Assembly (NCBI GenBank): GCA_048938445.1
Contig: JBHLME010000037.1
Location: 1 to 35,234, forward strand
From: Promethearchaeota archaeon
Lineage (GTDB): Archaea > Asgardarchaeota > Lokiarchaeia > Sigyniarchaeales > SOKP01
Direction of reading: 5' to 3'
Length of the DNA: 35,234 bases
The notes beneath the pieces were generated by a model, which was not told where the DNA came from, ran no database searches, and was given only the letters and a program-made list of their open reading frames with translations. Positions 1-34,234 of the stretch are shown piece after piece (the stretch's first letter is position 1; each line of letters opens with the position of its first letter). The translations under genes were made by a program, and so were the position numbers.

Positions 1-58
1 CTTGGCATCCGAGGCTTTCACCCTCGTGACCCGGGTTCGAATCCCGGCGGGAGCACCA
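1..58 (+). tRNA. tRNA-Glu(TTC), 5' end truncated by window edge
   Basis: Anticodon arm CGAGG-CT-TTC-AC-CCTCG, T arm CCGGG-TTCGAAT-CCCGG, 3' acceptor strand ending in encoded ACCA (55-58). Confidence 0.93.
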
Positions 59-1037: not shown

Positions 1038-1361
1038 ATTAAAGACGACGACATTTGTCCATTATGTAGTTTTCCAAAAGAGCTTTGTATTTGTAATAGT
1101 CTAAGTGCAGATGAACAACAAATAATAATATCTAATGATCGAAGAAAATGGGGTCGTATTGTCACGGTCATTACATTTGAGGGTAATTTTGATGCAAATC
1201 TTAAAGAAATTTTAACTGAAGCAAAAAGAAAATGTGCTTCGGGCGGAACTGTGAGAGGGAATGAAGTTGAACTTCAAGGTGATCATAAGTTTAAAATTAA
1301 AAGATTTTTAGTTGATTTAGGCTTTCCCGAAGAAAACATTACAATTAAAGAGACAATCTAA
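1038..1361 (+). CDS. sui1: Translation initiation factor aIF1/SUI1 (not in ORF track; probable ATT start)
   Basis: Manual translation: IKDDDICPLCSFPKELCICNSLSADEQQIIISNDRRKWGRIVTVITFEG...KRKCASGGTVRGNEVELQGDHKFKIKRFLVDLGFPEENITIKETI*. Has the archaeal N-terminal Zn knuckle and the SUI1 ELQGDH motif. In-frame TAG at 1032-1034. Confidence 0.92.
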   Translation: MKDDDICPLCSFPKELCICNSLSADEQQIIISNDRRKWGRIVTVITFEGNFDANLKEILTEAKRKCASGGTVRGNEVELQGDHKFKIKRFLVDLGFPEENITIKETI

Positions 1362-5106: not shown

Positions 5107-5279
5107 TATATCATCATGCTTTTTTTCTAATACTAATAAAAACGATATAATTTAAATCTTTATAAAATGATTTTTAATAAATAAATACAAAATTAATCTC
5201 AATTTAATTATAATACGATATTATTACTCTATTTCATAATAGTTTTTTTATAATCATTATTTTATATTCATGAATAAAA

Positions 5280-6014
5280 ATGCTTGATAATAAAATTAGA
5301 CTTTTAGTAAGCCCTAGGAATATAGAAGAAGCCAAACTATTAGTAAATGCACCGCATGTGGATTATATAGATTGTAAAAATCCTCTAGAGGGGTCTCTCG
5401 GAGCAAATTTTCCCTGGATAATTAAAGGGATGAAAGCTTTAATTCCAAAAAATAGCCATCAATTTTTAAGTGCAACAATTGGAGATTTTCCTTATTTGCC
5501 AGGTTCCGCTTCTTTAGCTGCTTTAGGTGCTGCTTGTTCTGGTGCAGATATTATCAAAGTTGGATTGAAAGGACCAAGAAATGAGGAGCAAGGTATACAT
5601 TTAATGAAAAATGTAGTAAAATCCGTAAAAGAGTATAACAAAAAAATCCAAGTAGTTGCGGCAGGTTATGCTGATAATGTTCGAATGGGATCATCACCCG
5701 GATATCTTGAAATCCCTAAAATAGCAGCCAAATCAGGAGCAGATATCGCAATGCTTGATACATATATTAAAGATGGCAAGGGTTTATTTGATTTTTTAAA
5801 TGAGGAAGAATTAATGAGTTTTACAGATCAAGCACGAGAATTAAACATTAAAGTTGCTTTAGCCGGTAATTTGATGGAGCAAGATTTAGAAAAGATAAAG
5901 AAAATTAAACCAGATATAATTGGTGTCAGGAGTATAGTATGTGAAAATTATGACAGAACTAAATCAATAAAACTAAAATTGATTGAAAACTTACAGATTG
6001 AATTATTTGGATAA
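5280..6014 (+). CDS. mfnB: (5-formylfuran-3-yl)methyl phosphate synthase (methanofuran biosynthesis)
   Basis: LLVSPRNIEEA, IDCKNPLEGSLGANFPW, SATIGD, IKVGL, MLDTYIKDG, ALAG, PDIIGVRS motifs. Confidence 0.9.
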   Translation: MLDNKIRLLVSPRNIEEAKLLVNAPHVDYIDCKNPLEGSLGANFPWIIKGMKALIPKNSHQFLSATIGDFPYLPGSASLAALGAACSGADIIKVGLKGPRNEEQGIHLMKNVVKSVKEYNKKIQVVAAGYADNVRMGSSPGYLEIPKIAAKSGADIAMLDTYIKDGKGLFDFLNEEELMSFTDQARELNIKVALAGNLMEQDLEKIKKIKPDIIGVRSIVCENYDRTKSIKLKLIENLQIELFG

Positions 6015-9098: not shown

Positions 9099-9902
9099 TT
9101 ACAACTTGGATTCTTTAATAGCTTCTTCTACCTCATAATCTTCATGTACTATTAAATATAAAGCTCTAACAACTTTAGAGGGATTATCTGCCTGAAATAC
9201 ATTTCTTCCATAGGCAACTCCAGCACCTCCTACTTCAAGAGATTGTTTAGTTATTTCCAAAATCCCTCTTATACCCGCTTTTTCTCCTCCTGCGATTATT
9301 ACTGGTGCCATACATCCTTCAACGACTTCTTTAAAAGAATCCGGATCTCCTGTCCAATTAGTTTTAACAATATCAACACCTAATTCTGCAGCAACACGTG
9401 CTGCTATTTTGACCACTTCTACATCATACTCATCTTTAATATTTTCTCCCCGTGGATACATCATTGCTAGTAATGGCATCCCATATTCCCTGCATTCTCG
9501 CGATACGGTACCTAAGGTTTCAAGCATTTCCGGATCTGATTTTGTACCTATATTTATATGCAAGGAAACGCCATCTGCTCCTAGTTTAACAGCCTCTAAC
9601 ACGGTATTGACCAAGACTTTATAGTTTGATTCAGGACTTAATGATGTTGAACCAGATAAGTGTATGATTAATCCTATATCTGGGCCATAACCCCTGTGAG
9701 CATAGAGGGGAATTCCAATATGGCCCAATACAGCATTAGCCCCTCCTAGAGCAATCTTATTTACTATTTCCCCCAAATCTTTATCTATGCCCTTAATAGG
9801 ACCGACAGTTAAACCATGATCCATCGGAACGATAATGGTCCTTTTATTTTCCCGGTTTATTATTCTCTCTAATCTAATTTGTTTCCCTATATAGCCCGAA
9901 AT
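9099..9902 (-). CDS. aroA': Class I aldolase (DhnA type), probably 2-amino-3,7-dideoxy-D-threo-hept-6-ulosonate synthase; true start upstream of the tracked ATG (probable ATT at 9902)
   Basis: PMDHG, GLIIHLSGSTSLSP, MMYPRG, ELGVDIVKT, IAGG, GRNVFQ. The conserved IGKQIRLERIINRENKRTIIVP reads in frame upstream of 9824; SD GAGGTG at 9915-9910. Confidence 0.85.
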   Translation of the reverse strand: MSGYIGKQIRLERIINRENKRTIIVPMDHGLTVGPIKGIDKDLGEIVNKIALGGANAVLGHIGIPLYAHRGYGPDIGLIIHLSGSTSLSPESNYKVLVNTVLEAVKLGADGVSLHINIGTKSDPEMLETLGTVSRECREYGMPLLAMMYPRGENIKDEYDVEVVKIAARVAAELGVDIVKTNWTGDPDSFKEVVEGCMAPVIIAGGEKAGIRGILEITKQSLEVGGAGVAYGRNVFQADNPSKVVRALYLIVHEDYEVEEAIKESKL

Positions 9903-9993
9903 ATATATACACCTCTTTAGTAAATACTTTTACTTCTATTCTTATTTTCAATTTTATTAATTTTAATGTTTCTTTGATTTTCATTATACCAAT

Positions 9994-11061
9994 TCATGAA
10001 GGAAAATATCCAGGAAATTCAAGACCCATCGTTTCTGGAAAATTACACATAAGATTCATACATTGAATAGCATTGCCTGCTGTTCCTTTGACCAAATTAT
10101 CAAGTGCACTTACGACTACTATTCGATTTATATTATCATCTAATTGAAATCCAACATCAACAAAGTTGGTTCCAATTATTATTTTAGGATCTGGCAATCG
10201 ATATATTCCTGTTTTTTGATTTATTAACCGCGTGAAAGGTTCGTCCTTAAAAGCGGTTCTATATGCTTTAAAAATTATTTTTTCATCAATATTCTTTGAT
10301 TCATCATAGAAAAGATGTGAAGTTGATAAAATTCCTCTTACAAGATTGACACCATGAGCAGAAAATCCAACTTTAACTTCATTGCCTTTATTCAATAATG
10401 TTAATTCTTGCTCAATTTCAGCAATGTGTCTATGTCCTGTCAATTTATATGGACGAATGCTATTTGCCCTAATAGGATGATGTGAAGCTTCGTTATGGCT
10501 AGCACCTGAACCTGAGGATCCTGTCTTGGAATCAATAATTATATTATTTACTTGAACTAATCCTTCTTTAATTAAGGGATATAATCCATAAATAGCACAA
10601 GCCGCTTGACAGCCTGCAACTGCGATTAAATTAGCTTTTTTTATTTCCTCCCTATGTAATTCTGGGATTCCGTATACTGCTTTATCAAGAAAAGCTGGGT
10701 TAACATGTTCTTTTTTATAATACTTTTTATATATCTCCTTATTTTTTATTCTAAAATCAGCACTCAGATCAATTACTTTTAATCCTACTTCGAGTAATTC
10801 TGGGACCATATCTTGTGAAACTTTATGTGGAACGGCTAAAAAAACAATATCGCATTTTTCTTTCGCTTTTTCAGTACTGAATTCTTCAAATTTAAGTTTA
10901 GAGATATTTCGAAAATTAGGATAAACAGAATGAAAATACTTTGTAATTAATTTGCGAGAAGTTACATAGTTTAAATTTACATTAGGATGAAAACTTAATA
11001 ACCTTACAGCTTCTCCTCCCGCATAACCAGTTGCTGCTATGACTCCTACATTCAATTCCAT
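9994..11061 (-). CDS. lysY: LysY/ArgC family [LysW]-aminoadipate/glutamate-phosphate reductase
   Basis: ATGYAGGE, IDLSADFR, YGIPE, AGC catalytic Cys, HHP.R..SIRPY..TGHRH.AE, RLPDPK..GTN, DNLVKGTAG (LysY-type signatures). ATG at 11061 preferred over TTG at 11070. Confidence 0.85.
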   Translation of the reverse strand: MELNVGVIAATGYAGGEAVRLLSFHPNVNLNYVTSRKLITKYFHSVYPNFRNISKLKFEEFSTEKAKEKCDIVFLAVPHKVSQDMVPELLEVGLKVIDLSADFRIKNKEIYKKYYKKEHVNPAFLDKAVYGIPELHREEIKKANLIAVAGCQAACAIYGLYPLIKEGLVQVNNIIIDSKTGSSGSGASHNEASHHPIRANSIRPYKLTGHRHIAEIEQELTLLNKGNEVKVGFSAHGVNLVRGILSTSHLFYDESKNIDEKIIFKAYRTAFKDEPFTRLINQKTGIYRLPDPKIIIGTNFVDVGFQLDDNINRIVVVSALDNLVKGTAGNAIQCMNLMCNFPETMGLEFPGYFPS

Positions 11062-11179
11062 ACAATTCAAAAATTTAAATAAAATTATAAAGTTATCTAT
11101 AAAAAATTAAGTTAAAATTATAGGAAAAAATATTTATCACTAATTTTATCACATTTTTTATACCTTACCTTACCTTAAA

Positions 11180-21471: not shown

Positions 21472-22032
21472 TTAAAACTCTGGTTTGTATAGCTGTTTAA
21501 ATTCTTCTTTCTTTTTTTCGTTATATTTATTATCTAAATACTTTAATACCGTGTGATGGGGCATTCCATTAATTAACATACTAATTGCTTTTCGACCAAC
21601 TTGTAAATTTTCGTAATTCCCGATAATTGCCACGTTCTTTCCATAAACTGAAATAAGACATTCTGAATATCTTTCAATTGATTTACGCATTTCTCCATTT
21701 CTTCCTATTATTCTCCCCTTAATCCTCTTTATTCGATTTTCGGATTTACCTAATATTATCATGAGATTAAATATTTCAAGATCATGGTCTTCATCCAACA
21801 GTAACATTGCTTTTTGAGGATTAAAACCTCTATTAATTGCTGAAATAATTTTTTGTGCTGTAAGCACGTTCAAAGGATTATAATTAGCATCATTTAAGCT
21901 TGGAATAACTTCACAATCACCTGTTTTGCTATTTAGATCTATTTTTACTCCAAGTTTCTTCTCAATTTCTTCTTTGGTTTGCCCATTTTTTCCAATTACA
22001 ACAGCTATCCTAGCTTTTTGAATTTTAAACAA
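21472..22032 (-). CDS. KH-domain rRNA-processing protein (Dim2/Pno1/Krr1 family)
   Basis: RIAVVIGKNG, AINRGF.P..A, RIKGRIIGRNG, ISVYGK; follows rio1. Confidence 0.92.
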   Translation of the reverse strand: MFKIQKARIAVVIGKNGQTKEEIEKKLGVKIDLNSKTGDCEVIPSLNDANYNPLNVLTAQKIISAINRGFNPQKAMLLLDEDHDLEIFNLMIILGKSENRIKRIKGRIIGRNGEMRKSIERYSECLISVYGKNVAIIGNYENLQVGRKAISMLINGMPHHTVLKYLDNKYNEKKKEEFKQLYKPEF

Positions 22033-22118
22033 TACTATTCTTTCTCTTTTTACAATTTGTACTATTTTAATTTCTTTTTTTATTAAAATATTTAATTATT
22101 TGTCTTTTATCTCTTTTT

Positions 22119-25572: not shown

Positions 25573-25716
25573 TGGTAGCGGGGGTTCGATTTTCAGCTTA
25601 CTGGATACCAGTATTTTTTAACCTTTGAACGAACGATCTCAGGGTTTCTTCATGATAAAGAACAGCCTTCACCATTTATGAGCCCTGCGGCATAAACCAG
25701 GCTAGCCCACCCCGCT
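25573..25716 (-). tRNA. Initiator tRNA-Met(CAT) with two introns (25646-25676 at 37/38; 25590-25623 at 59/60)
   Basis: A1:U72 acceptor AGCGGGG/CCCCGCT plus ACCA; three consecutive G-C pairs in anticodon stem CAGGG/CCCTG; T stem GTTCG/CGAAC with BHB TTCA/TGAA. Confidence 0.9.
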
Positions 25717-33993: not shown

Positions 33994-34234
33994 ATGTCAA
34001 GCATTAAAAAAAATGCTCATAGGAACATTCTCCCTATTATAATATGAGTCTTCAAATTATGGTATACAATTATATTTTTAATTGTTGTAATTTGTAATGT
34101 CTCGAATCGTCAAGGTTGATACTTGCTTTACTATTAAAATTATAAAGCAAAAGTAATGGTAATTTAAAGACCAAACTGAATCTTACAAGCTTTTGTACAA
34201 GCAATCTGAACCTTTCCTTTATTAGACGCCAATA

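Follow-up and report, generated by a model that had tools for sequence, protein, structure and literature searches.

In a metagenome-assembled genome (MAG) of a Promethearchaeota archaeon, we found that an aldolase gene on the minus strand of contig JBHLME010000037.1 very probably starts at an ATT codon at position 9902, and comparative and genome-wide evidence supports a regular, Shine-Dalgarno (SD)-dependent use of ATT and ATA as start codons by this genome and its family. All positions refer to the 35,234-nucleotide (nt) stretch of this contig that was analysed, hereafter the window, which has ~29% G+C. Translation in archaea is generally held to begin at AUG, GUG, or UUG. The elements on which the argument turns are the following.

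9099..9902, minus strand: ADH-synthase-type coding sequence (aroA'-like, DhnA/DeoC class I aldolase), 267 codons, from ATT 9902 to TAA 9101-9099
9900..9902, minus strand: proposed ATT start codon, aligned with ATG, TTG, and ATA starts of orthologues, 7 nt past the SD
9910..9915, minus strand: Shine-Dalgarno GAGGTG, a match to the genome SD consensus GAGGTGA
9930..9932, minus strand: in-frame TAA closing the frame upstream
9822..9824, minus strand: first canonical codon, ATG (Met27), internal, just after strand beta1

Between the two in-frame TAA codons (9932-9930 and 9101-9099), the minus strand holds an open frame of 276 codons in which ATG 9824 is codon 36 and the first ATG, GTG, or TTG. An earlier note on this DNA had stated that only ATA and ATT are available as start candidates ahead of 9824, and indeed zero in-frame ATG, GTG, or TTG codons lie between TAA 9932-9930 and ATG 9824. 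The ten codons after the upstream TAA read AAG TAT TTA CTA AAG AGG TGT ATA TAT ATT, and from ATT 9902 the frame runs ATT TCG GGC TAT ATA GGG AAA and onward to CCG ATG (9824). The only ATH codons (ATT, ATC, or ATA) of the leader are ATA 9908 and ATT 9902, while further ATA and ATT codons lie within the conserved part of the protein. The strong SD that the same note had placed 7 nt ahead of ATT 9902 was confirmed: GAGGTG occupies 9915-9910 and the spacer to ATT 9902 (9909-9903) is exactly 7 nt. Counted from its first base, GAGGT starts 13 nt before ATT 9902, which is the modal distance in this genome, where the SD consensus is GAGGTGA and GAGGT mostly starts 13 nt (range 12-15) ahead of ATG starts. 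Over 9750-10050, the assembled contigs from four public runs (two studies) are identical.

The earlier note had further claimed that a family-conserved N-terminus precedes the Met at 9824 and that a start at this Met would delete the first TIM-barrel strand, and both claims held. The product read from ATT scores 372.7 bits on NF005556 (cut-off 241), 335.4 on TIGR01949 (cut-off 299.45), and 194.7 on PF01791, while the product from ATG 9824 reaches 332.6 bits on NF005556 and only 303.7 on TIGR01949; the 26 upstream codons thus add 40 bits on NF005556 and 32 bits on TIGR01949. With the ATT start, the TIGR01949 profile is covered from position 1 and NF005556 from position 4, and the ADH synthase MJ0400 of M. 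jannaschii (2qjg) aligns with E 3.6e-91 over query residues 5-265. When 37 orthologues are aligned, six residues within this N-terminal stretch (G6, R10, E12, R13, I14, and R17) do not vary. The AlphaFold2 model computed from this alignment (mean predicted local distance difference test score 83, predicted template modelling score 0.86; residue blocks 11-20 and 21-30 at 86 and 80, respectively) places the first strand, beta1, at residues 22-26 (TIIVP), right before Met27; because beta1 precedes Met27, a start at 9824 would delete it. A complete (beta/alpha)8 barrel with beta1 and the N-terminal GK.(I/V)R(L/M)ERI segment is obtained only from the ATT start. By its family scores, the gene would encode an ADH synthase (AroA'). 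It resembles MJ0400 (PDB 2qjg, 2qjh, 2qji) in having the same N-terminal segment and the same position of the lysine in the DIVKT motif; this lysine, K180, is invariant in the alignment, aligns to residue 184 of 2qjg, and is presumably the catalytic Schiff-base residue of ADH synthase. The pathway partner, a type II dehydroquinate synthase (PF01959), is encoded at C8:21312-22391 (354 bits). A second ADH-synthase paralogue with 60% identity and a TTG start lies at G000:C175:12189-12980 on the minus strand, and both copies are present in most family genomes.

The start codons of aldolase orthologues, which the earlier note had proposed comparing among related genomes, alternate between ATT, ATG, TTG, and ATA at one aligned codon. 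In a first set, obtained by searching 41 related genomes, close orthologues (77-93% identity) were present in 17 family genomes and all matched from query residue 1-2; the codon directly before the conserved SGYIGK was ATT in eight (G000, G002, G004, G018, G010, G007, G020, and G008) and ATG in nine, and it was ATG in the three next-closest orthologues, which belong to other families. A second set, partly overlapping the first, comprised 38 close orthologues (83-93% identity) from species-representative MAGs, mostly titled Promethearchaeota archaeon, that is, from the Asgard group that includes Lokiarchaeia. Here, the same codon was ATT in 20, ATG in 10, TTG in 7, and ATA in 1, and no other codon occurred; all seven Leu-coded starts were TTG, and the far commoner TTA, as well as CTN, was absent among the 38. 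Conservation at the protein level ends exactly at the codon before SGYIGK, and 12 of the 38 orthologues (among them L169, L174-176, L178-182, and L184-185, with TTG or ATT) have an in-frame stop one codon upstream of the start. Moreover, Met27 is not always kept: the ATT-start orthologues L149 and L165 have ATA at codon 27, and L177, which starts with ATG, has TTA; L002 and L014 (PIDHG), maybe the same genomes as L149 and L165, likewise combine an ATT start with a non-Met codon 27. Because only start-capable codons occupy the aligned column, conservation ends at it, stops lie close to it, and Met27 is not kept, we conclude that this column represents the start codon and not an internal position.

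The orthologues that start with ATT have stronger SDs, at tighter spacing, than those that start with ATG. The 21 orthologues with an ATT or ATA start nearly always carry GGTGA, AGGTGA, or GAGGTG with a spacing of 5-8 nt to the codon, and an SD match is kept in all of them (a 5-mer or longer in 20 and a 4-mer in one). Among the 10 ATG-start orthologues, a match of at least 5 nt is found in only 3 and the spacing is looser. Mean SD duplex energies were -7.9 kcal/mol for ATT/ATA starts, -6.7 kcal/mol for TTG starts, and -4.2 kcal/mol for ATG starts (ATT/ATA versus ATG, Mann-Whitney p 4e-4, computed on related and, therefore, non-independent genomes).

To extend the analysis to the whole genome (4.63 Mb), we anchored a tally on every SD 5-mer (15,650 anchors) and recorded the triplet at fixed offsets. 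A site was kept if its open reading frame (ORF) was open for at least 100 codons, with an in-frame stop at most 12 codons upstream, and if zero further ATG, GTG, or TTG codons occurred from this stop to 5 codons downstream of the site. The counts were as follows.

Offset 13, 105 sites, start-type codons: ATG 31, TTG 18, ATA 16, ATT 14, ATC 3, GTG 1, CTG 1
Offset 13, same 105 sites, control codons: AAT 1, TAT 1, TTA 2, TTT 0, AAA 0
Offsets 12-14, 247 sites: ATG 97, TTG 40, GTG 8, ATT 23, ATA 22, ATC 5, CTG 1

At offsets 12-14, ATT and ATA together were thus found 45 times versus 13 for the five control codons AAT, TAT, TTA, TTT, and AAA, while the flanking offsets (9, 10, 17, and 18) gave 9 versus 37 (odds ratio 14, p 3.7e-9). 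Decoy anchors were flat, with 3 ATT/ATA versus 8 control codons for reversed SD 5-mers and 1 versus 11 for a set with G replaced by C. With 50 of the 196 start-like codons in the strong-SD class at offsets 12-14 being ATT, ATA, or ATC, we estimate that ATT and ATA, and occasionally ATC, serve as start codons at roughly a fifth to a quarter of the strong-SD-class sites examined. In total, ~700 ORFs of the genome have their first canonical codon more than 20 codons in.

Next, 54 de-duplicated candidate ORFs with an ATH codon at offsets 11-15 were scanned against Pfam with a family cut of E <= 1e-5. A family was assigned to 32 of the 54; in 12 of these the first canonical codon cuts the domain, in 3 the cut is small (C30, C134, and C137), in 2 a canonical start fits (C96, with ATC, and C242_-), and 15 were uninformative. 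The 12 genes with a cut domain are listed with the proposed start, the Pfam match, and the number of codons from the ATH to the first downstream ATG, GTG, or TTG.

C5_-_13191: ATT, Arf/Roc from 126, first canonical codon 153 codons downstream
C47: ATA, Response_reg 4-114, 22 codons
C51: ATA, ABC_tran 24-169, 69 codons
C83: ATT, AA_kinase 4-247, 24 codons
C95: ATT, CbiA/ParA from 10, 28 codons
C108: ATA, CobS 11-271, 32 codons
C109: ATA, ThrRS editing domain 2-139, 45 codons
C131 (the window aldolase): ATT, DeoC 22-238, 26 codons
C135: ATT, Ribosomal_S10 5-99, 16 codons
C221: ATT, ApbA 3-150, 17 codons
C243: ATA, Fumerase_C 6-181, 86 codons
C254: ATT, DnaJ 8-70, 30 codons

The suggestion made from the aldolase gene alone, that non-AUG initiation may be more general and SD-assisted, is therefore borne out, by the scan for SD plus ATH that had been proposed along with it and by the codon turnover and the stronger, tighter SDs described above; it also proves broader than suggested, as ATA is about as frequent as ATT and other genera of the family share the trait.

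Within the window, a scan of 39 ORFs showed that a non-canonical start is needed only by the aldolase and by the gene for the initiation factor aIF1, which the earlier note had named, as sui1, as a companion case.

1038..1361, plus strand: aIF1/SUI1 gene, with no ATG, GTG, or TTG until codon 73 of 108; ATT 1038 is the likely start

This companion case holds across the family, in which the codon before K-D-D/E-D/E-I-C-P in aIF1 is ATT in 20, ATC in 2, and ATA in 1 of 23 loci. Usually 9 nt ahead of this start, these 23 loci have a conserved AAGGTTGTGA, and in 4 of them an in-frame GTG lies inside the motif. A second aIF1 paralogue (G000:C95:28-333, minus strand) also has a 5' end free of ATG, GTG, and TTG, and in another family aIF1 starts with TTG, GTG, or ATA. 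As a separate observation, the AAGGTTGTGA motif of the window copy is SD-like but for one additional T and may be regulatory. A KH-domain gene at 21475-22095 on the minus strand was considered as a third case in the window and dropped, as it has a plausible TTG at codon 22.

Like both aIF1 genes, ribosomal protein S10 shows such a turnover of start codons in relatives, the codon before QKARIRL being ATA in 9, GTG in 5, ATT in 2, TTG in 2, ATG in 1, and unrecognisable in 2 of 21 family loci. Of nine loci from other families, eight have ATG at this position or one codon before it, and the ninth, L146, combines ATT at this position with an ATG located 8 codons upstream. Two S10 genes of genus g8 (L136 = G012:C7 and L137 = G022:C131) carry TCG at the start position, 7 nt past GGTGA; their leader contains no in-frame ATG, GTG, or TTG, its sole ATH lies 15 codons upstream and lacks an SD, and no recognised start fits. 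In G010, the S10 gene (C135:24551-24883, L138) gives a full-length match with three in-frame stops (two TAG and one TAA) in an insertion of ~30 nt, which may be either an intervening sequence or a fault of the assembly.

The SD-anchored tally was repeated on two further genomes.

G021 (other genus, same family), 720 kb, 34 sites: ATG 13, TTG 3, GTG 1, ATT 5, ATA 4, ATC 1
G032 (other family), 800 kb, 35 sites: ATG 19, TTG 3, GTG 2, ATT 0, ATA 3, ATC 1

ATH sites thus amount to 10 of 34 in G021 versus 4 of 35 in G032, numbers too small to separate the two genomes. Judged from these tallies together with the orthologous loci, the ATT/ATA start trait is shared within the family, by other genera too.

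Decoding of such starts would fall to the initiator tRNA, which is encoded in the window.

25574..25716, minus strand: initiator tRNA-Met, anticodon CAU, with two introns (exons 25716-25676, 25646-25624, and 25592-25574)

Because two introns interrupt it, this gene was found only by means of a relative's gene; ARAGORN, Rfam at the gathering score, and a whole-genome motif scan all missed the host initiator tRNA. Its exons exactly match the initiator tRNA of a family relative (L230) that has no introns; of its two introns, one (~29 nt) lies at or beside the anticodon loop and the other (~31 nt) in the T arm. Among 31 family genomes, a 13-nt anticodon-arm pattern recovered canonical initiator tRNAs in 9; the acceptor end of these tRNAs is A1...U72, their anticodon stem GGG/CCC, and their anticodon CAU, and several contain introns. 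In these 31 genomes, no initiator-type anticodon arm with a non-CAU anticodon was established, the T/G34 pattern hits in L229 and L236 lacking tRNA context and two other loci not having been inspected. The initiator tRNA in the window has a CAU anticodon and thus gives no hint that AUH codons (AUU, AUC, or AUA) have an initiator of their own. The introns in the initiator tRNAs of relatives (L230-L240) are at varied positions or absent. Separately, G000:C215:6400-15100 holds ~28 tRNA genes in ~9 kb with a G+C content of 42-56%, low for archaeal tRNAs; this array includes the sole ARAGORN-detected tRNA-Met(CAU) together with tRNA-Ile(UAU), several of its tRNAs have A1:U72 end pairs, and it resembles a tRNA array of the virus type or mobile-element type, or a mis-binned contig.

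Several points weigh against a start at ATT 9902 and against its generalization. The case for ATT 9902 is drawn from sequence comparison and a predicted structure, and the four runs were compared at the level of assembled contigs, with this DNA possibly stemming from two of these runs. Orthologues were counted across related genomes, and these counts do not represent independent events; the SD tallies for the whole genome, G021, and G032 count sites and not de-duplicated genes. In 4 of the 21 ATT/ATA-start orthologues (L149, L167, L168, and L183), an in-frame TTG or GTG overlapping the SD lies 3-5 codons upstream, and one NCBI-sourced orthologue call takes the upstream TTG (P0006, 272 aa). Because small-subunit (SSU) rRNA is absent from the entire MAG, the anti-SD was deduced from the consensus of the SDs, and the duplex energies were computed with an assumed 8-mer. 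The sample from the other family, G032, has ATT 0, ATA 3, and ATC 1 among its 35 sites in 800 kb. Finally, the paralogue on C175 scores higher on TIGR01949 than the window copy (353.7 vs 335.4 bits) and, therefore, the exact enzymatic role of the window aldolase is uncertain; unlike the situation with MJ0400, this Asgard genome has two paralogues and either may be AroA'.

One alternative is translation from ATG 9824 to give a 241-residue protein, with the conserved upstream frame untranslated or a relic. ATG is the strongest start codon and this is the output of Prodigal-type gene callers, as seen in the 241-aa forms in JGI/IMG, Logan, and ENA-derived collections. However, this product would lose beta1 and 26 residues with little or no variation across archaea, no SD precedes ATG 9824, the corresponding codon is ATA in ATT-start orthologues (L002/L149 and L014/L165), and in 38 of 38 close orthologues the upstream frame stays open and its protein sequence is conserved, so that we consider this start most unlikely. 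Initiation at another non-canonical codon of the leader (ATA 9908 or ATA 9890), or reading of the Ile codon by an elongator tRNA to give an N-terminal Ile, is very unlikely. Elsewhere in the genome, ATA starts are about as frequent as ATT starts, and ATA 9908 stands in frame two codons upstream of ATT 9902; yet ATA 9908 lies only 1 nt past the SD and ATA 9890 19 nt past it, with ATT 9902 at the preferred distance. Orthologues have TTT, ATC, GGC, TTA, AAT, ACA, and other codons at the 9908 position, with no conserved start-capable codon, and the ATG-start orthologues fix the N-terminus at M-S-G-Y; the sole initiator-type tRNA found has a CAU anticodon.

That the ATT reflects an assembly or sequencing error, or a pseudogene decaying after loss of its ATG, might be argued from the 8% contamination of the MAG and from the second paralogue on C175 with its TTG start and higher TIGR01949 score. 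The site is, however, identical in the contigs of all four runs from both studies, the same ATT is present in 20 of 38 MAG orthologues with an intact frame, 83-93% identity, and zero stops, and precisely the ATT-start lineages have kept and strengthened the SD, which makes this explanation extremely unlikely. We also considered a programmed +1 frameshift from an upstream ATG at 9984, in another frame, the 36-codon ORF of which runs to ~9874 and overlaps the SD/ATT region. The upstream sequence is unconserved among orthologues, 12 of 38 of them have the in-frame stop one codon before the start with the SD directly upstream, and there is no conserved slippery motif; the frameshift was rejected for want of conservation and its probability is practically negligible.

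How would initiation at ATT 9902 work? Pairing between SD and anti-SD would position the 30S subunit on the aldolase leader, where Met-tRNAi(CAU) would pair with AUU despite a third-position mismatch, such that the protein would begin with Met, and the strong, well-spaced SD would offset the weak AUU codon. AT mutation pressure in this lineage of ~30% G+C probably eroded ATG to ATA or ATT wherever a strong SD keeps initiation workable. ATG giving way to ATA and ATT with compensation by the SD would be a clear case of mutation pressure reshaping a translation signal.

Among bacterial genes, infC (encoding IF3) and pcnB of E. coli are initiated at AUU. The proposed mechanism resembles these cases in that a near-cognate AUU on an SD-led mRNA would be read by the normal initiator tRNA, with a fidelity factor (IF3 or aIF1) discriminating against it, and it resembles infC in that the fidelity factor's own gene has a weak codon, here ATT, ATC, or ATA in 23 of 23 family aIF1 loci. 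It differs in extent, from a handful of genes per bacterial genome to about a quarter of strong-SD start-like codons, including those of S10 and DnaJ; in addition, ATA is as frequent here as ATT, the host is an archaeon with eukaryote-type factors, and autoregulation is a candidate only. Mitochondria and NCBI table 11 likewise accept ATT, ATC, and ATA as starts, and pipelines that admit these codons, as the NCBI-sourced calls do, return the long forms of the proteins. In mitochondria, AUA is read via a modified C34 on tRNA-Met; the Asgard initiator tRNA is described here from its gene.

In other archaea, aIF1 has been described to destabilise non-AUG initiation complexes (PMC6237735) and, therefore, the output of AUH-started genes should be sensitive to aIF1 activity. 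By reasonable analogy, one may hypothesize a set of such genes whose output depends on the level of aIF1, as the earlier note had proposed. We can also envisage, tentatively and as a possibility that we hold to be rather unlikely, that the whole Lokiarchaeia-type family, and less so its order, is relaxed at the third base of the start codon, that AUU and AUA are ordinary, SD-dependent start codons in it for a substantial share of genes, among them those for S10, DnaJ, and both aIF1 paralogues, and that the gene for aIF1, which rejects non-AUG codons and in this family always starts with AUH, sits in an infC-like negative feedback that sets the output of the AUH-started genes. A lineage rich in SD-tied AUU and AUA starts would be a natural system for studying the start-codon stringency of aIF1, aIF2, and tRNAi and a possible feedback by aIF1.

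An identical-protein look-up identified the 267-aa aldolase (MSGYIGK...) and a 101-aa S10 as NCBI-sourced calls, while the calls from JGI/IMG, ENA, and Logan are shortened (aldolase 241 aa, S10 85 aa). The long forms are NCBI-sourced, so homology-guided annotation already picks ATT and ATA starts gene by gene, and the ATT start of the individual gene is already implicit in NCBI-sourced annotation. For the tubulin AtubA in a MAG of Kariarchaeaceae (Heimdallarchaeia), a 'rare ATT start codon' was assumed, plausibly spaced from a ribosome-binding site (PMC13394414). As in the aldolase, an ATT start was thus proposed near a ribosome-binding site in an Asgard gene; in the part of that paper considered here, it is a single-gene remark in the Methods on another Asgard class and stands without comparative or genome-wide analysis. 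By a term search, neither AUU nor AUA occurs in a 2020 review that covers SD use in a cultured Lokiarchaeon (PMC7531240). In the literature searched, which included few subscription journals and no supplements, general initiation at ATT or ATA in Asgard or other archaea is undescribed apart from the tubulin remark, and neither the pattern across the lineage nor its link to SD strength nor the invariably weak aIF1 start appears to have been described.

Gene callers restricted to ATG, GTG, and TTG shorten such proteins (aldolase 241 vs 267 aa, S10 85 vs 101 aa), and aIF1 may be missed altogether because its first canonical codon is number 73 of 108. Asgard proteomes are heavily mined for eukaryote-like proteins and used for structure prediction, and lost first strands or helices distort both; the published Asgard tubulin needed repair by hand (PMC13394414).

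The remaining features of the window are listed here.

9994..11070, minus strand: argC-like semialdehyde dehydrogenase gene (PF01118, PF22698), the upstream neighbour of the aldolase gene, ending 91 nt before ATT 9902
1-55, plus strand: 3' fragment of a tRNA at the contig start
34226-35234, plus strand: archaeal large-subunit rRNA, beginning at 34226, with no SSU rRNA in front
5274-6011, plus strand: full-length match to 4-HFC-P synthase (PF04476, 257.6 bits)

The last of these is not obviously expected in an Asgard genome, and it belongs to a family tied to methanofuran biosynthesis.

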